A stretch of DNA of 64,000 bases from Escherichia coli (lineage in GTDB: Bacteria > Pseudomonadota > Gammaproteobacteria > Enterobacterales > Enterobacteriaceae): the NCBI RefSeq assembly GCF_017348835.2, contig NZ_CP071375.1; one strand, given 5' to 3'. The position numbers were made by a program, and so were the translations under genes. The notes under the pieces were generated by a model that was not told where the DNA came from, did not search any database, and worked only from the letters and a program-made list of their open reading frames with translations. Within the stretch, counting starts at the first letter, position 1. Each line of letters starts with the position of its first letter. Shown piece after piece: positions 8,549 through 21,600 of the stretch.

Positions 8549-8566
8549 TTCTTACGCCTGTAGGAT
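8549..8566. promoter_or_regulatory. EvgA-box-like inverted repeat in the emrK-evgA divergent region (TTCTTACGCCTGTAGGAT)
   Basis: Matches the EvgA consensus (18-bp inverted repeat of TTCYTACA) at 7/8 plus 7/8 positions. Confidence 0.5.
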
Positions 8567-8790: not shown

Positions 8791-9405
8791 ATGAACGCAA
8801 TAATTATTGATGACCATCCTCTTGCTATCGCAGCAATTCGTAATTTATTGATCAAAAACGATATTGAAATCTTAGCAGAGTTGACTGAAGGCGGAAGTGC
8901 CGTTCAGCGGGTGGAAACACTTAAGCCTGATATCGTCATCATTGATGTCGATATCCCCGGAGTTAACGGTATCCAGGTGTTAGAAACGCTGAGGAAGCGC
9001 CAATATAGCGGAATTATTATTATCGTCTCCGCTAAAAATGACCATTTTTACGGGAAACATTGTGCTGATGCTGGCGCTAATGGTTTCGTGAGTAAAAAAG
9101 AAGGCATGAACAATATCATTGCGGCTATTGAAGCTGCAAAAAATGGCTACTGCTATTTCCCCTTCTCTCTCAACCGGTTTGTTGGAAGTTTAACGTCCGA
9201 CCAGCAAAAACTCGACTCCTTATCGAAACAAGAAATTAGTGTCATGCGCTATATTCTTGATGGCAAGGATAATAATGACATTGCTGAAAAAATGTTCATC
9301 AGCAACAAAACTGTCAGCACTTATAAAAGTCGCCTGATGGAAAAATTAGAATGTAAATCACTGATGGATCTTTACACATTCGCACAACGTAACAAAATCG
9401 GCTAA
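8791..9405 (+). CDS. evgA: Response regulator (NarL/FixJ family), acid and drug resistance regulator
   Basis: 204-aa ORF with receiver domain and C-terminal LuxR-type HTH; followed by evgS 4 nt downstream. Confidence 0.95.
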   Translation: MNAIIIDDHPLAIAAIRNLLIKNDIEILAELTEGGSAVQRVETLKPDIVIIDVDIPGVNGIQVLETLRKRQYSGIIIIVSAKNDHFYGKHCADAGANGFVSKKEGMNNIIAAIEAAKNGYCYFPFSLNRFVGSLTSDQQKLDSLSKQEISVMRYILDGKDNNDIAEKMFISNKTVSTYKSRLMEKLECKSLMDLYTFAQRNKIG

Positions 9406-9409
9406 CCAC

Positions 9410-12400
9410 ATGAAGTTTTTACCCTATATTTTTCTTCTCTGTTGTGGTCTTTGGTCGACCATAAGTTTCGCAGACGAAGATTACATCGAATATCGTGGCA
9501 TCAGTAGTAACAACCGTGTCACACTTGATCCACTACGTCTGAGCAACAAGGAATTACGTTGGTTAGCGAGCAAAAAAAATCTTGTGATTGCAGTACACAA
9601 GTCCCAAACGGCTACGTTGTTGCATACCGATTCGCAGCAACGGGTTCGTGGTATTAATGCTGATTATTTAAATCTTTTAAAAAGAGCGTTAAATATCAAA
9701 CTAACACTCCGGGAATACGCCGATCATCAAAAAGCAATGGACGCGCTGGAAGAAGGTGAAGTCGATATAGTGTTATCACATTTAGTTGCTTCGCCGCCTC
9801 TTAATGATGACATTGCTGCAACCAAACCACTGATAATTACCTTTCCGGCGCTCGTCACCACCCTTCACGATTCAATGCGACCGCTTACCTCATCAAAACC
9901 AGTAAATATTGCTCGAGTAGCAAATTATCCCCCTGACGAGGTAATTCATCAATCATTTCCAAAAGCAACAATTATCTCTTTTACAAATTTATATCAGGCA
10001 TTAGCATCCGTCTCAGCCGGACAGAATGATTACTTTATTGGTAGTAACATCATTACCAGCAGTATGATTTCCCGCTATTTCACTCACTCCTTAAATGTAG
10101 TGAAATATTATAACTCACCGCGTCAATATAATTTTTTCTTGACCAGAAAAGAATCTGTCGTTCTTAATGAAGTACTCAATCGATTTGTTGATGCTTTGAC
10201 AAATGAAGTTCGCTATGAAGTATCACAAAATTGGCTTGATACAGGAAACCTGGCCTTTCTGAACAAACCATTAGAACTCACTGAACATGAAAAACAATGG
10301 ATTAAGCAGCATCCCGATTTAAAGGTGCTGGAAAATCCTTACTCCCCTCCCTATTCTATGACGGATGAAAATGGCTCGGTTCGGGGCGTTATGGGGGATA
10401 TTCTTAATATTATTACTTTGCAAACAGGTTTAAATTTTTCTCCGATCACCGTTTCACACAATATCCATGCTGGAACACAGCTGAATCCCGGCGGATGGGA
10501 TATATTACCCGGTGCTATTTATAGTGAAGATAGAGAAAATAATGTTTTATTTGCTGAAGCCTTCATAACAACGCCTTACGTTTTTGTCATGCAAAAAGCG
10601 CCTGACAGTGAACAAACATTAAAAAAAGGAATGAAAGTTGCCATTCCATATTATTATGAGCTGCATTCGCAATTAAAAGAGATGTATCCGGAGGTAGAGT
10701 GGATAAAAGTCGATAACGCCAGCGCTGCATTTCACAAGGTCAAGGAAGGTGAACTTGATGCTCTGGTCGCGACACAGTTAAATTCGCGTTACATGATCGA
10801 CCATTACTATCCTAATGAACTGTATCATTTTCTTATTCCCGGCGTTCCGAATGCATCGCTTTCGTTCGCTTTTCCTCGCGGAGAACCGGAACTTAAGGAT
10901 ATTATTAATAAAGCACTGAATGCAATCCCCCCAAGCGAAGTTCTGCGCCTGACCGAAAAATGGATTAAAATGCCCAATGTGACCATTGACACATGGGACC
11001 TCTATAGCGAGCAATTTTATATTGTTACGACATTATCCGTTTTATTAGTTGGCAGTAGCCTTTTATGGGGATTCTACCTGTTACGCTCAGTTCGTCGTCG
11101 TAAAGTCATTCAGGGTGATTTAGAAAACCAAATATCATTCCGGAAAGCGCTCTCGGACTCCTTACCGAATCCAACTTATGTTGTAAACTGGCAAGGTAAT
11201 GTCATTAGTCACAATAGTGCATTTGAACATTATTTCACTGCTGATTACTACAAAAATGCAATGTTACCATTAGAAAACAGTGACTCACCCTTTAAAGATG
11301 TTTTTTCTAATGCGCATGAAGTCACAGCAGAAACGAAAGAAAATCGAACAATATACACACAGGTATTTGAAATTGATAATGGCATCGAGAAAAGATGCAT
11401 TAATCACTGGCATACATTATGCAATCTGCCAGCCAGCGATCATGCTGTTTATATTTGTGGTTGGCAAGATATTACCGAGACGCGTGATTTAATTCATGCA
11501 CTCGAAGTAGAGAGAAATAAAGCGATCAATGCAACTGTCGCAAAAAGTCAGTTTCTGGCAACAATGAGTCACGAAATAAGAACACCAATAAGCTCCATTA
11601 TGGGCTTCCTGGAACTTCTGTCGGGTTCTGGTCTTAGCAAGGAGCAACGGGTGGAGGCGATTTCACTTGCCTACACCACCGGACAATCACTCCTCGGCTT
11701 AATTGGTGAAATCCTTGATGTCGACAAAATTGAATCGGGTAACTATCAACTTCAACCACAATGGGTCGATATCCCTACTTTAGTCCAGAACACTTGTTAC
11801 TCTTTCGGTGCGATTGCTGCAAGCAAATCGATCGCATTAAGTTGCAGCAGTACGTTTCCTGAACATTACCTGGTTAAGATCGACCCTCAGGCGTTTAAGC
11901 AGGTCTTATCAAATTTACTGAGTAATGCTCTCAAATTTACCACCGAGGGGGCAGTAAAAATTACGACCTCCCTGGTTCACATTGATGACAACCACGCTGT
12001 AATCAAAATGACGATTATGGATTCTGGAAGTGGATTATCGCAGGAAGAACAACAACAACTGTTTAAACGCTATAGCCAAACAAGTGCAGGTCGTCAGCAA
12101 ACAGGTTCTGGTTTAGGCTTAATGATCTGCAAAGAATTAATTAAAAACATGCAGGGTGATTTGTCATTAGAAAGTCATCCAGGCATAGGAACAACATTTA
12201 CGATCACAATCCCGGTAGAAATTATCCAACAAGTGGCGACTGTCGAGGCAAAAGCAGAACAACCCATCACACTACCTGAAAAGTTGAGCATATTAATCGC
12301 GGATGATCATCCGACCAACAGGCTATTACTCAAACGCCAGCTAAATCTATTAGGATATGATGTTGATGAAGCCACTGATGGTGTGCAAGCGCTACACAAA

Positions 12401-13003
12401 GTCAGTATGCAACATTATGATCTGCTTATTACTGACGTTAATATGCCGAATATGGATGGTTTTGAGTTGACTCGCAAACTCCGTGAGCAAAATTCTTCCT
12501 TACCCATCTGGGGGCTTACAGCCAACGCACAGGCTAACGAACGTGAAAAAGGGTTAAATTGCGGCATGAACTTATGTTTGTTCAAACCGTTGACCCTGGA
12601 TGTACTGAAAACACATTTAAGTCAGTTACACCAGGTTGCGCATATTGCACCTCAGTATCGCCACCTTGATATCGAAGCCCTGAAAAATAATACGGCGAAC
12701 GATCTACAACTGATGCAGGAGATTCTCATGACTTTCCAGCATGAAACGCATAAAGATCTACCCGCTGCGTTTCATGCACTAGAAGCTGGCGATAACAGAA
12801 CTTTCCATCAATGTATTCATCGCATCCACGGTGCGGCTAACATCCTGAATTTGCAAAAGTTGATTAATATTAGCCATCAGTTAGAAATAACACCTGTTTC
12901 AGATGACAGTAAGCCTGAAATTCTTCAGTTGCTGAACTCTGTAAAAGAACACATTGCAGAGCTGGACCAGGAGATTGCTGTTTTCTGTCAACAAAATAAC
13001 TAA
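9410..13003 (+). CDS. evgS: Hybrid sensor histidine kinase (periplasmic binding domains, HisKA-HATPase, receiver, HPt)
   Basis: 1197-aa ORF with a signal sequence, two periplasmic solute-binding-like domains, MSHEIRTP H-box, receiver and HPt domains. Confidence 0.95.
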   Translation: MKFLPYIFLLCCGLWSTISFADEDYIEYRGISSNNRVTLDPLRLSNKELRWLASKKNLVIAVHKSQTATLLHTDSQQRVRGINADYLNLLKRALNIKLTLREYADHQKAMDALEEGEVDIVLSHLVASPPLNDDIAATKPLIITFPALVTTLHDSMRPLTSSKPVNIARVANYPPDEVIHQSFPKATIISFTNLYQALASVSAGQNDYFIGSNIITSSMISRYFTHSLNVVKYYNSPRQYNFFLTRKESVVLNEVLNRFVDALTNEVRYEVSQNWLDTGNLAFLNKPLELTEHEKQWIKQHPDLKVLENPYSPPYSMTDENGSVRGVMGDILNIITLQTGLNFSPITVSHNIHAGTQLNPGGWDILPGAIYSEDRENNVLFAEAFITTPYVFVMQKAPDSEQTLKKGMKVAIPYYYELHSQLKEMYPEVEWIKVDNASAAFHKVKEGELDALVATQLNSRYMIDHYYPNELYHFLIPGVPNASLSFAFPRGEPELKDIINKALNAIPPSEVLRLTEKWIKMPNVTIDTWDLYSEQFYIVTTLSVLLVGSSLLWGFYLLRSVRRRKVIQGDLENQISFRKALSDSLPNPTYVVNWQGNVISHNSAFEHYFTADYYKNAMLPLENSDSPFKDVFSNAHEVTAETKENRTIYTQVFEIDNGIEKRCINHWHTLCNLPASDHAVYICGWQDITETRDLIHALEVERNKAINATVAKSQFLATMSHEIRTPISSIMGFLELLSGSGLSKEQRVEAISLAYTTGQSLLGLIGEILDVDKIESGNYQLQPQWVDIPTLVQNTCYSFGAIAASKSIALSCSSTFPEHYLVKIDPQAFKQVLSNLLSNALKFTTEGAVKITTSLVHIDDNHAVIKMTIMDSGSGLSQEEQQQLFKRYSQTSAGRQQTGSGLGLMICKELIKNMQGDLSLESHPGIGTTFTITIPVEIIQQVATVEAKAEQPITLPEKLSILIADDHPTNRLLLKRQLNLLGYDVDEATDGVQALHKVSMQHYDLLITDVNMPNMDGFELTRKLREQNSSLPIWGLTANAQANEREKGLNCGMNLCLFKPLTLDVLKTHLSQLHQVAHIAPQYRHLDIEALKNNTANDLQLMQEILMTFQHETHKDLPAAFHALEAGDNRTFHQCIHRIHGAANILNLQKLINISHQLEITPVSDDSKPEILQLLNSVKEHIAELDQEIAVFCQQNN

Positions 13004-17039: not shown

Positions 17040-18290
17040 TCAGATGGCGTGGTTTTGCTTCATTGCAGCAATTTCATCGTCGCTATAACCCAGCTCCTGC
17101 AATACAGCAGCGGTATGTTCACCTAATAGCGGCGCAGCTTTAATATCTGGCGTAAAGGCAGAGAATTTCATTGGACAACCAACTGTCAGATATTTTCCAC
17201 GCAACGGTTGTTCCACTTCGACAACACTGCCACTTTGGCGTAAAGAGGGATCAAGTGAAATTTCTTTCATACTTAAAACCGGTGCACAAGGAATATCAAA
17301 CTGAGTCAAATAGGCCACCGCTTCATGTTTATCAATAGTGACAGTGTATTTTTCGATTTCAGCAAAAATATCGAAAATATGTGGCTGTCGGGCATGGGCT
17401 GTACTGTATGCCGGATCGGTAATCCAATCTGGTTTGCCGATGGCTTTACAGGTGTTTTCCCAGTTTTGCTCCTGAATAGTGAAATAAATATAGGCGTTAG
17501 GATCTGTTTCCCAGCCTTTACATTTCAGGATCCAGCCAGGCTGACCGCCACCACCCGCATTACCACCGCGGGGAACTGCATCACCAAATGTGCCATTCGG
17601 ATACTGCGGGTATTCTTCCAGATAACCCAATTTATCGAGACGCTGCTGGTCGCGTAATTTCACGCGGCAAAGGTTCAATACGGCATCCTGCATTGACATG
17701 GTGACTCGTTGCCCACGCCCCGTTTTTTCTCGATGCAGCAAAGCAGCAAGTAAACCGATCAGTAAATGCATTCCGGTGTTGCTGTCACCCAACGCTGCAG
17801 CGCTTACCAGCGGCGGACCGTCCCAAAAACCCGTAGTAGATGCCGCGCCACCCGCTGCCTGAGCAACGTTTTCATAGGCTTTTACATTCACATAAGGCGA
17901 ACACTCATCAAACCCTTTGATCGAACCAAAAATCAGACGTGGATTGATTTCTTGAATATGCTCCCAAGTGAAGCCCATATGATCAATGGCCCCTGGATGA
18001 AAGTTCTCGACTAAGATATCAGCTTCGCGGATCAGCTTTTCCATTACCTCTTTGCCTTCCGCTGTTTTGGTATTTAATTCAATAGAACGTTTGTTACTGT
18101 TAAGAATGGTGAAGTAAAGCGCATCGATATCAGGAATATCTCGCAGCTGGTGACGCGTTACGTCACCAACGCCGGGGCGTTCAATTTTAATGACGTCAGC
18201 GCCAAACCAGGCCAGCATTTGAGTACAAGATGGGCCAGATTGCACACCGGTGAAATCGAGAACTTTAATTCCTTGAAGTGGAGTTGACAT
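17040..18290 (-). CDS. frc: Formyl-CoA:oxalate CoA-transferase
   Basis: 416-aa ORF of family III CoA-transferase (paralogue of yfdE), starting [20 protein letters not shown]. Confidence 0.93.
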
Positions 18291-18540
18291 AGCAATACCT
18301 ATTAGTTAATTAAATATGTGTTAATTTAGCGTTTATTTAAGGCATAACGCCTCTATAAATAATCCGCAAAATATCGTCGTAGCTGCACTCGATATTTTCA
18401 CATTCCTGTATCAAGTACTGAAAATCATTTCATCGCTACTTCCAATTCCTTTCTGCATGGTAAGTAGTGAGGACGAAAAGAAGAATATGATAAATATTGG
18501 TTCGTGGTAATCAGAGAGAGTCGCGACATTTGTGATGTTA

Positions 18541-18558
18541 TTCTTACAACTGTAAGAA
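18541..18558. promoter_or_regulatory. Perfect EvgA-box-like palindrome TTCTTACAACTGTAAGAA upstream of frc
   Basis: 18-bp perfect inverted repeat matching TTCYTACA-N2-TGTARGAA, about 250 bp upstream of the frc start in the yfdX-frc intergenic region. Confidence 0.55.
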
Positions 18559-18801
18559 GCGCCGGTGATTTACAAGTAAGGGTATGATTACGCTTTTTAA
18601 AGCGTACCATAAAATATAACATATTAAATGATTTGTGATGACACGGGATTATTGCGGTTTACTTTGAGGAATATAAAATGCGAGTTTATAGAACCGCGAG
18701 CGCCAAATAATTTTATGACCACAACCTGTCGTATTGTGGTCATAAAAAATTGTCGGCTGGAGGGAGTTAAATCCTTTACCTCAATATACTGCCTGTCAGC
18801 A

Positions 18802-19437
18802 TTAGTTCACAAACAGTGCTTCGCTATCGACGATGATTCCATCTTCCGCACCTTTAAGCGCCAGGTTTGCCTCGTAGTATTGCTTTTTATCAAGCAGTTT
18901 CTGCGCATCAGCAAGTGCATTACGAGTCTGTTTAAGCGGCATCAGATATTGGTTTTCCATTACGCCAACACCGGCCAGGCGAAGCTCTTCCATTGCGCCC
19001 TTTTTATCCCCTTTCGCCATTTTTTCATTGGCAATTTTTATCGCGGCTTCTTTTTCGGGTGTTGCTACATAACTCTCAGAAATTCCGACAGATGCATTAA
19101 TGACAATATATTGGTCATCATTGAGATTGGTCTTTTTACCTGGCTTAGCGAACTTTGCCCATTCGGTACTGTCATCTGACAACAAAGCGGAAGCTTCATT
19201 GGTCAGTTCTTTTGCCTTTTCCGGATCGCCATGAAACAGAGCCAGGCGCGCTACCTGCACGTCACGCATCGCATATAAACCTTGTTCAGAGATACGCTCT
19301 GCTGCCGCTGCCGTTTTCTGGGTTTGCTGAACTTGCTGAGTTTGCTTTTGTGCCGCTACCGGAGCATTATCAGCAGCCCATACAGTTGAAGATGCCAGAA
19401 TTGCTGTGACCATCGTGGCCATAATTAAACGTTTCAT
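18802..19437 (-). CDS. yfdX: YfdX-family periplasmic protein (EvgA regulon)
   Basis: 211-aa ORF with a signal peptide ([21 protein letters not shown]). Confidence 0.9.
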
Positions 19438-19533
19438 ACTTACCTCATTCTTTAACAGTTTTAGAAAACGCCGCCATCATATTGGGTGAGCATGAAATGA
19501 GAAATCAGAGAGCAACGGTCATTTTGAAAGGGT

Positions 19534-19590
19534 TATCTTACAGTTGTAGTTATTATCGCAAGAAGTATTTTAGTCTTACAATTGTAGGAA
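19534..19590. promoter_or_regulatory. Two adjacent EvgA-box-like inverted repeats upstream of yfdX (ATCTTACAGTTGTAGTTA and GTCTTACAATTGTAGGAA)
   Basis: Both match the TTCYTACA-N2-TGTARGAA pattern (13-15 of 16 positions) and lie 100-150 bp upstream of the yfdX start. Confidence 0.5.
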
Positions 19591-19732
19591 TATGCTTCCT
19601 GTCACAGAGAACTATTCTTATGTACCACAAAGAGATGTCATTTATTATATCGATGTAAATATTGATTAATTATATGTAAATACAGCCATAACATCGTACA
19701 TTCTCAGTGAACCATTTTCAGGATAACTTTCT

Positions 19733-20008
19733 ATGAAAGTAAACTTAATACTTTTTAGCTTATTTTTATTGGTCTCTATTATGGCATGCAATGTTTTTGC
19801 ATTTTCCATTTCTGGTGGTGGAAGTGAGAGGAGCTATAAAGAGACGGAAAAAACATCAGCGATGACGACAACTCACTCTACAAAAATTCAGCCATCACAG
19901 GCAATTTTGTTTAAGATGAGAGAAGATGCGCCACCATTAAACCTCACAGAAGAAACCACGCCCCCTTTTCCGACAAAGGCGAATTATCTTATTCATCCTG
20001 TGCGATAG
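19733..20008 (+). CDS. ypdI: Small predicted lipoprotein
   Basis: 91-aa ORF with signal peptide and lipobox-like ...SIMAC; divergent from yfdX. Confidence 0.8.
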   Translation: MKVNLILFSLFLLVSIMACNVFAFSISGGGSERSYKETEKTSAMTTTHSTKIQPSQAILFKMREDAPPLNLTEETTPPFPTKANYLIHPVR

Positions 20009-20084
20009 CGTCTGTCACCTGGCAGGTGAACAATCATGTCTGATGCTGATGTGAACACCTGCCCAAATGAGCCATCCTGACCCA

Positions 20085-20327
20085 CTATCGCCTGCCATAC
20101 CCCACCATAAAGCGAATCATCAAGCCACAAGCCGGGGCAAGAAACATAAATATCCCCGTCACCAGTTCATTACCGCCAGTTAACCACATGGTGAAGTAAT
20201 AAATGAGTGCAGCGAGGATCACCATGCCGAAGAAAGAAGAGACCGCCGATACCACGTTCAGTACCTGACCGATGTATCCGCTTACGCAGACAATACACAG
20301 GGCGAGAAACATCCATAAATAAATCAT
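20085..20327 (-). CDS. yfdY: Small inner-membrane protein (DUF2545)
   Basis: 80-aa ORF with two hydrophobic helices. Confidence 0.8.
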   Translation of the reverse strand: MIYLWMFLALCIVCVSGYIGQVLNVVSAVSSFFGMVILAALIYYFTMWLTGGNELVTGIFMFLAPACGLMIRFMVGYGRR

Positions 20328-20679
20328 AGCTCAACCTCCTGCCGCGCTAAAAAACCTGTAACTTCAGTCACTTTAATAGTAAGACAATCCTTACCCTCTG
20401 GCAATTTTTGCTAAGCATCAATGAAAACAGCATGTTAAATGCAACACTATTGCATGCGGAAAATTTTTTACTTTGCACGATTAATAATCAGTAGCTGAAA
20501 GCAGTCAGCCAGTGATAAAGTAGAGCCACCGCATTCATGCTCCTCGTGGTTATGTCCTGACTAGTCTTTACACTCTTTACAGGAACCATTGTCGTACATG
20601 ATGGCCCAACCAATTGAGTGTACCGCTGTCGACATGGAATCTTCTGCGATACAACAATTCGTATCTACAGAAGGTAACT

Positions 20680-21600
20680 ATGTTTCCACAATGCAAATTT
20701 TCCCGCGAGTTTCTGCATCCTCGCTACTGGCTCACATGGTTTGGGCTTGGTGTACTCTGGCTTTGGGTACAGCTTCCTTATCCTGTTCTCTGCTTTCTCG
20801 GCACGCGTATTGGCGCAATGGCGCGACCATTCCTGAAACGGCGTGAATCTATCGCCCGTAAAAACCTGGAACTTTGCTTCCCGCAGCATTCTGCGGAAGA
20901 ACGCGAGAAGATGATTGCCGAAAACTTTCGTTCACTCGGCATGGCGCTGGTAGAAACCGGCATGGCGTGGTTCTGGCCCGACAGTCGCGTACGTAAATGG
21001 TTTGATGTTGAAGGGCTGGATAACCTTAAACGCGCACAAATGCAAAATCGCGGCGTAATGGTTGTCGGCGTCCATTTTATGTCGCTGGAACTGGGCGGCC
21101 GCGTGATGGGACTTTGTCAGCCAATGATGGCTACCTATCGTCCACATAATAATCAGCTGATGGAATGGGTGCAGACCCGTGGTCGCATGCGCTCTAACAA
21201 AGCGATGATCGGCAGAAATAATCTGCGCGGCATTGTCAGTGCACTGAAGAAAGGTGAAGCGGTATGGTTTGCTCCCGATCAGGATTATGGTCGTAAAGGC
21301 AGCTCCTTCGCGCCGTTCTTTGCGGTAGAAAATGTCGCCACAACCAATGGCACCTATGTTCTCTCCCGTCTCTCTGGCGCAGCCATGTTGACCGTAACGA
21401 TGGTAAGAAAAGCGGATTACAGCGGATATCGTTTGTTCATCACCCCAGAGATGGAAGGCTACCCGACAGATGAAAATCAAGCCGCTGCCTATATGAACAA
21501 GATTATCGAGAAAGAGATCATGCGCGCACCGGAGCAGTACCTCTGGATCCACCGTCGCTTTAAAACGCGCCCGGTGGGAGAATCGTCGTTATACATTTAA
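20680..21600 (+). CDS. lpxP: Lipid A palmitoleoyl-ACP acyltransferase (cold-induced LpxL paralogue)
   Basis: ORF 20614-21600 trimmed to the internal ATG (MFPQCKFSREFLHPRYWLTWFG), 306 aa; lauroyl/myristoyl acyltransferase family. Confidence 0.9.
   Translation: MFPQCKFSREFLHPRYWLTWFGLGVLWLWVQLPYPVLCFLGTRIGAMARPFLKRRESIARKNLELCFPQHSAEEREKMIAENFRSLGMALVETGMAWFWPDSRVRKWFDVEGLDNLKRAQMQNRGVMVVGVHFMSLELGGRVMGLCQPMMATYRPHNNQLMEWVQTRGRMRSNKAMIGRNNLRGIVSALKKGEAVWFAPDQDYGRKGSSFAPFFAVENVATTNGTYVLSRLSGAAMLTVTMVRKADYSGYRLFITPEMEGYPTDENQAAAYMNKIIEKEIMRAPEQYLWIHRRFKTRPVGESSLYI

Follow-up and report, generated by a model that had tools for sequence, protein, structure and literature searches.

Two inverted repeats that resemble the binding box of the response regulator EvgA lie close together between the divergent genes yfdX and ypdI of E. 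coli. This raises the question of whether both repeats act together on yfdX or whether each of them serves one of the two divergent promoters. We analysed the repeats within the 64-kb window (the whole stretch of DNA studied, 64,000 nucleotides), using gene names from the RefSeq annotation of a genome that is identical across the 295-bp intergenic query. The genes and repeats considered in this work are located as follows:

8791-9405, plus strand: evgA, which with evgS forms the cognate two-component system
9410-13003, plus strand: evgS; the evgA-evgS pair (8791..13003) lies within the window, approximately 10 kb from the twin boxes
17040-18290, minus strand: frc
18802..19437, minus strand: yfdX (ATG at 19437), a gene already known to be induced by EvgA
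19535..19552, no strand assigned: EvgA box site 1, ATCTTACAGTTGTAGTTA, 3 mismatches to TTCYTACANNTGTARGAA
19553..19572, no strand assigned: inter-box spacer, 20 bp
19573..19590, no strand assigned: EvgA box site 2, GTCTTACAATTGTAGGAA, 1 mismatch to TTCYTACANNTGTARGAA
19733..20008, plus strand: ypdI (ATG at 19733), a small lipoprotein gene tied to colanic acid synthesis and divergent from yfdX

The yfdX-ypdI intergenic region measures 295 bp. Both repeats are identical in K-12 MG1655, and E. coli O157:H7 genomes show 100% identity over the intergenic region. The genes yfdY and lpxP are also among the neighbours, and no Rfam family matched in 18200-20700. Passages of PMC3720670 that cite Masuda and Church 2003 give the direct EvgA regulon as emrKY, evgAS, ydeP, safA-ydeO, yegR, yfdX and frc-oxc-yfdVE. 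The same passages describe yfdX as an EvgA-activated gene with an inverted repeat upstream, and place inverted repeats upstream of both yfdX and yfdW (frc). What is central to the finding was thus known already, and the twin boxes are an ordinary extension of the known EvgA regulon.

Both repeats match the EvgA box in sequence

The window was scanned with TTCYTACANNTGTARGAA, allowing up to 3 mismatches, and the result was compared with that of shuffled sequence. Four matches were found in 64 kb, compared to 0.54 expected (none of 100 shuffles gave four), and all of them fall in promoter regions of the EvgA regulon. Besides sites 1 and 2, these were the emrK/evgA site (8549-8566, 2 mismatches) and, upstream of frc, a box without any mismatch (18541-18558). 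Simple arithmetic from the scan rate gives a probability of about 1e-3 for a second match within some 60 bp of site 2 by chance. Applied to K-12, the scan detected one box each (1 to 2 mismatches) in front of safA, ydeP and yegR. Together, these single boxes and the window matches indicate that the motif marks the known EvgA regulon cleanly. Accepted K-12 EvgA sites carry 0 to 2 mismatches. Among the EvgA regulon promoter regions examined, two boxes were found only at yfdX/ypdI.

The initial annotation had called the repeats EvgA-box-like and placed them about 20 bp apart in the divergent region. The mismatch counts and the scan bear this out; the gap is exactly 20 bp (38 bp from centre to centre), and the start given there, 19534, was one base early. 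Measured from the ATG codons, the boxes span 98-153 bp upstream for yfdX and 143-198 bp upstream for ypdI. Both of them retain the core TCTTACA-NN-TGTAG, and this 14-nt core repeat is the sole repeat detected between the two box units. The mismatches of site 1 include C3 and G16, both invariant in the other six boxes. The better half-site of site 1 (TGTAAGAT, on the minus strand) points to yfdX, and the perfect half-site of site 2 (TGTAGGAA) points to ypdI. At the level of sequence, both repeats are conserved EvgA binding-site motifs, and sites 1 and 2 share every such property of the EvgA operator family.

An extended tandem duplication was considered and rejected. The likeness between the repeats is limited to the 18-bp box (14/18 positions; 13/14 in the core), and the 20 bp after site 1 match the 20 bp after site 2 at 3/20 positions (manual count). 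The 20-bp gap was also inspected for a hidden third box; this idea was rejected, since the best register reaches approximately 7/16 specified positions. A full-text literature search for the box sequences returned no paper containing them, and a search for the phrase "EvgA box" returned none.

Each box shows the EvgA promoter layout towards one gene

We aligned five EvgA promoters (emrK, frc, safA, ydeP and yegR) on their box and oriented them towards the gene. A common layout emerged: TGTARGAA, the better half-site, faces the promoter, followed by T26-C27..A30-T31-T32 and by a -10 hexamer starting at +53/+54. This layout was derived here from the five promoters and is not a published criterion. 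If transcription is assumed to start 7 nt past the -10 hexamer, the box centre lies near -74.5. The corresponding elements between yfdX and ypdI are as follows:

19476..19481, minus strand: predicted yfdX -10, TATGAT, 54-59 nt after site 1; putative start at about 19469
19498..19509, minus strand: conserved TCTGATTTCTCA, carrying TC..ATT at 26-33 nt from site 1, and a weak -35, TTCTCA
19616..19621, plus strand: TCTTAT motif, 26-31 nt after site 2, resembling an EvgA half-site; counterpart of the motif near -40
19643..19648, plus strand: predicted ypdI -10, TATTAT, 53-58 nt after site 2; putative start at about 19655

Counting from site 1 towards yfdX, TCTGATTT is found at +26 and TATGAT at +54, and a promoter scan reports the same hexamer. 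The sequence TCTGATTTCTCA is invariant in Escherichia and is present in the Buttiauxella and Yersinia yfdX promoters. The -10, -35 and +1 positions at yfdX and ypdI are all predictions, and the supplements of Kim 2012 contain no start site for either gene. Tested against the fixed geometry, site 1 fits towards yfdX and site 2 towards ypdI, while the cross assignments do not fit.

We scored the same layout using a weight matrix covering positions +20 to +62 and built on five sequences only. The score was 2.07 for ypdI from site 2 (top 0.08% of window positions) and -0.64 for yfdX from site 1 (top 0.28%). The cross assignments, yfdX from site 2 and ypdI from site 1, scored at background (-25 and -20), as did the evgA and yegS directions (range -18 to -25, crosses included). 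Leave-one-out scores were weak (frc, p ~0.16; yegR, ~0.05), and the ypdI score was equally good at an offset of -6. The matrix result is supportive of, and not decisive for, the assignment of one box to each predicted promoter.

The motif near -40 reads TCYTAT or TCTGAT, in parallel with the half-site variants TCYTAC and TCTGAC. It is present in 5/5 known promoters, in yfdX (19504-19509), in ypdI (19616-19621) and in Buttiauxella yfdX/hdeD, and at +26 to +32 its distance from the distal half-site is 42 bp (four helical turns). Likeness and placement suggest that EvgA may make an additional contact by the -35 region.

The layout fits only the pairing of site 1 with yfdX and of site 2 with ypdI, and one box per divergent promoter, rather than two boxes cooperating on yfdX, is therefore the most likely arrangement. 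We hold with moderate confidence that the region comprises two back-to-back EvgA-dependent promoters with weak -35 elements, each with its own box at about -74.5. EvgA is a NarL/FixJ-type response regulator that EvgS activates at mildly acidic pH, and each box would bind a dimer of phosphorylated EvgA, its better half-site facing its own promoter. From site 1, the proposed yfdX promoter would have the box centre at about -74.5, TCTGAT near -40, TATGAT at 19481-19476 and a start near 19469; from site 2, the proposed ypdI promoter would have the centre at about -74.5, TCTTAT near -40, TATTAT at 19643-19648 and a start near 19655. EvgA at about -74.5 would probably recruit or stabilise RNA polymerase, possibly helped by a second EvgA contact at the motif near -40. 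In this model the occupation of the boxes by EvgA, the two start sites and the way in which EvgA activates are inferred. Site 2, the better match to the consensus, may be the site that the literature assigns to yfdX.

The frc box TTCTTACAACTGTAAGAA (18541-18558) is located in the 511-bp yfdX-frc intergenic region and shows the layout of yfdX site 1, with CTCTCTGATT at 23-32 nt and TATTCT at +54. This implies a separate, predicted EvgA-dependent frc promoter inside a unit often drawn as a single yfdXWUVE operon.

Twin boxes in Buttiauxella and Yersinia

A YfdX scan using one genome per species returned 9 loci, including Buttiauxella and Yersinia; apart from L010, a separate Escherichia genome, no other Escherichia species was among them. 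In Buttiauxella, yfdX is divergent from an hdeD-like gene (DUF308) that adjoins hdeA/B and glutamate decarboxylase, and the yfdX loci are flanked by an EvgS orthologue (42-52% identity). Twin boxes of the TCTGACA type are present, 20 bp apart. Scored with the matrix trained on E. coli, the yfdX-side box reached 0.3 to 4.1 towards yfdX and the hdeD-side box 0.2 to 10.2 towards hdeD, the cross assignments giving background scores. With respect to the conserved CTCTGATTT, the strong Buttiauxella yfdX box occupies exactly the position of E. coli site 1. Buttiauxella is thus, judged by its predicted elements, an independent replication of the twin-box design with one box per promoter.

The Buttiauxella noackiae EvgS orthologue (L014, 3698-6583) aligns to E. 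coli EvgS residues 122-585 and 694-1159, skipping residues 586-693 (cytoplasmic linker/PAS), and its gene adjoins yfdX and the gad/hdeAB/hdeD cluster.

Yersinia vastinensis has no ypdI, and arsB and arsC are found upstream of yfdX instead. Its site 1 keeps the core (ATCTGACAGCTGTAGTTA), and its site 2 has two core substitutions (GTCTTATACCGGTAAGAA). The yfdX-frc segment of this genome (L011), with 84% protein identity to E. coli and EvgA-type boxes, lies directly downstream of arsB/arsC, which suggests horizontal transfer of part of the island. A further locus (L018), a 241-bp scaffold assigned to Limosilactobacillus vaginalis, encodes the C-terminal 54 residues of YfdX, 100% identical to those of the E. 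coli protein; the scaffold probably reflects contamination of that assembly with E. coli DNA.

Box spacing and copy number

The unit of 38 bp, consisting of one box and the spacer, differs in copy number among E. coli genomes, some of which give a 333-bp match instead of the 295-bp match. In strain Ec1119 there are three boxes, spaced by 38 bp. The middle one joins the left part of site 2 to the right part of site 1, a hybrid that unequal recombination inside the shared core would be expected to produce. Three or more boxes are present in 414 of 5,426 complete E. coli genomes (junction-specific query fully covered). Strain IBS28 has four boxes, so that at least 1 genome carries the four-box allele; in a BLAST query with four repeat units, whose pieces were joined, this strain was again the best match. 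In one genome, A10, a one-box allele with a single hybrid box was found in a 257-bp intergenic region. The native flanks of the outermost boxes are retained in every allele, and the distance to each proposed promoter is consequently unchanged; in the one-box allele the lone palindrome is equidistant from both. Because the boxes share the 14-nt core, unequal recombination between them could add or remove 38-bp units and generate the one-, two-, three- and four-box alleles. A more speculative and rather doubtful extension is that the 38-bp unit, in 1 to 4 copies, is an evolvable dial for the strength, or the independence, of the yfdX/ypdI response to EvgA; all EvgA promoters might moreover use a so far overlooked third half-site near -40.

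The initial annotation had read the tandem sites as cooperative EvgA binding upstream of yfdX. On that reading both boxes would serve yfdX, two EvgA dimers binding cooperatively in tandem, and ypdI would be a passenger of the activating region. Relatives of EvgA such as BvgA do bind promoters as dimer arrays. Every Escherichia sequence examined has both boxes at a constant 38-bp spacing, and so does Yersinia, although ypdI is missing there; the Yersinia case also counts against the proposal of one box per promoter. However, 38 bp corresponds to approximately 3.6 helical turns, so that the two dimers would be out of phase and would not share a face of the DNA. Nothing box-like is seen in the 20-bp gap, where variability is the highest of the region. 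A single box is present at each of the other five EvgA promoters, and alleles with one to four boxes exist naturally. Moreover, the yfdX-type layout is absent downstream of site 2 and present in the ypdI direction. The sites are not contiguous or in helical phase, as those of a BvgA-like array would be. The cooperative interpretation is accordingly unlikely to be correct.

Conservation of the two sites

We aligned seven Escherichia sequences, comprising divergent E. coli lineages and L010, and eight when Yersinia was included. In the seven Escherichia sequences, 1/28 half-site positions of the two boxes were variable, compared to 3/4 positions of the central dinucleotides and 8/20 positions of the inter-box spacer; within the spacer, 19562-19568 was hypervariable among E. 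coli lineages. The half-sites were also less variable than the local neighbourhood (1/28 vs. 14/48; Fisher p = 0.005). None of the 30 positions in the predicted promoter elements varied. Variation where the consensus is free and none where it is fixed is the pattern expected of two functional operators, and argues against site 1 being a relic. Sites 1 and 2 both look to be under selection.

These data bear on the possibility that only site 2 is functional, for yfdX and perhaps ypdI, and that site 1 is a duplicate undergoing decay, without any role. In favour of this, site 1 has 3 mismatches, C3 and G16 among them. But the half-site core of site 1 is invariant across E. coli lineages while the neighbouring bases vary, and relative to TCTGATTT and the -10 it is placed exactly like the frc box and like the only strong box of yfdX in Buttiauxella. 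The number of mismatches is comparable to that in ydeP and emrK (2 each), and most of them fall in the half away from the promoter; safA, ydeP and emrK are likewise degenerate in that half. We regard a functional role for site 2 alone as quite improbable.

The sequence ATTATCGCAA on the minus strand (TTGCGATAAT, 19552-19561) resembles an extended -10, TGcGATAAT, and is located 18 bp downstream of TTGTAA inside site 2. Transcription of yfdX from a promoter embedded in the repeats (TTGTAA in site 2, 18-bp spacer, TGcGATAAT at 19560-19552 on the minus strand), with EvgA bound near -35/+1 and not at -74.5, is very improbable: a promoter scan does report it with its extended -10, and ATTATCGCAA, which adjoins site 1, is invariant in 8/8 sequences including Yersinia, but the -35 part is not conserved in Yersinia, the arrangement was seen at no other EvgA promoter examined, and the start would lie inside site 1, so that bound EvgA would hinder transcription rather than activate it.

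Expression of ypdI and yfdX

Published transcriptomes give information on ypdI, which according to the initial annotation could be co-regulated. In an iModulon analysis (PMC10833566, supplementary file 2), ypdI (b2376) is included in the EvgA-labelled list together with yfdX, frc, oxc, yfdV, yfdE, emrKY, yegR, ydeO and ydeP. Its RNA abundance was approximately 1.1 rpkm at pH 7.6, 11 at pH 5.8 and 2.9 at pH 4.4, a rise of about 10-fold at pH 5.8, and emrK showed a matching profile (approximately 2.5, 24 and 3.6 rpkm respectively); ypdI ribosome occupancy did not rise (PMC10746267, Table S3). Exposure to glutathione increased ypdI 5.5-fold, together with yfdX (9.8-fold), yegR (11.9-fold) and ydeO (5.3-fold) (PMC5811628). 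Published data also indicate that acid strongly induces yfdX. Co-regulation of ypdI with the EvgA regulon is thus supported by three published transcriptome sets, in agreement with the earlier proposal. In the accessible literature ypdI was found as an iModulon member only and not as a named EvgA target. The low absolute amount of ypdI RNA and the flat ribosome occupancy mean that its induction could be a weak by-product of EvgA acting at yfdX.

Relation to known systems

The twin boxes share with the 18-bp EvgA box the consensus TTCYTACA-N2-TGTARGAA, the distance from box to -10 and a regulator gene 10 kb away. They differ from the rest of the regulon in that two boxes occur only at yfdX/ypdI among the regions examined, the second box apparently serving the ypdI promoter. 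The emrK/evgA region is the closest parallel, with an EvgA box between two divergent operons that are both EvgA-controlled; by contrast, it has one box (8549-8566), and the typical layout is seen towards emrK only, the evgA direction scoring at background.

At the Bordetella pertussis fhaB and ptx promoters, several BvgA dimers cover the DNA that extends from a primary inverted repeat to the -35; the dimers abut with a periodicity of about 22 bp and bind cooperatively. EvgA belongs to the same regulator family, and the likeness extends to a TTTCCTA-like heptad half-site, an upstream primary inverted repeat and a possible extra contact near -35. Unlike at the BvgA promoters, the boxes have here a spacing of 38 bp, no site can be recognised in the gap, and they appear to serve two different promoters. 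The EvgA core TCYTACA-NN-TGTARGA also has the geometry of NarL 7-2-7 sites, in which inverted heptamers 2 bp apart are bound by a dimer with a GerE/LuxR-type helix-turn-helix. The half-site sequence and the regulator are different, and NarL sites occur at many promoter positions whereas EvgA boxes apparently keep one fixed distance.

The gain over previous work is incremental, because the EvgA regulator, the motif and the yfdX target were already known. Four points may be new: site 1 is assigned to yfdX and site 2 to a ypdI promoter, the boxes follow a rule of fixed distances, Buttiauxella shares the twin-box design, and the 38-bp unit is a variable-number repeat. If the proposal of one box per promoter is true, the weaker box, and not the near-consensus one, would be the activator site of yfdX, and ypdI would be a direct EvgA target with its own promoter. 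A lipoprotein with an implied part in the production of colanic acid would then be linked to acid sensing by EvgS. A simple rule to predict EvgA-dependent promoters would follow from the fixed distances between box, near -40 motif and -10, and the natural alleles with one to four boxes would be ready material on the effect of site number at divergent promoters.

Further sequence features of the intergenic region

A 21-nt tandem direct repeat (ATTTATTATATCGATGTAAAT / ATTGATTAATTATATGTAAAT) with an overlapping imperfect palindrome is present at 19638-19681 and covers the predicted ypdI -10 and start site. It could be an operator for another regulator. The right half of site 2 is overlapped by another inverted repeat, AGGAA-N5-TTCCT (19586-19600). 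It was considered as an RcsB-type box and rejected, since its spacing does not agree with the RcsB consensus. All E. coli strains compared have the same arms, which are altered in L010.
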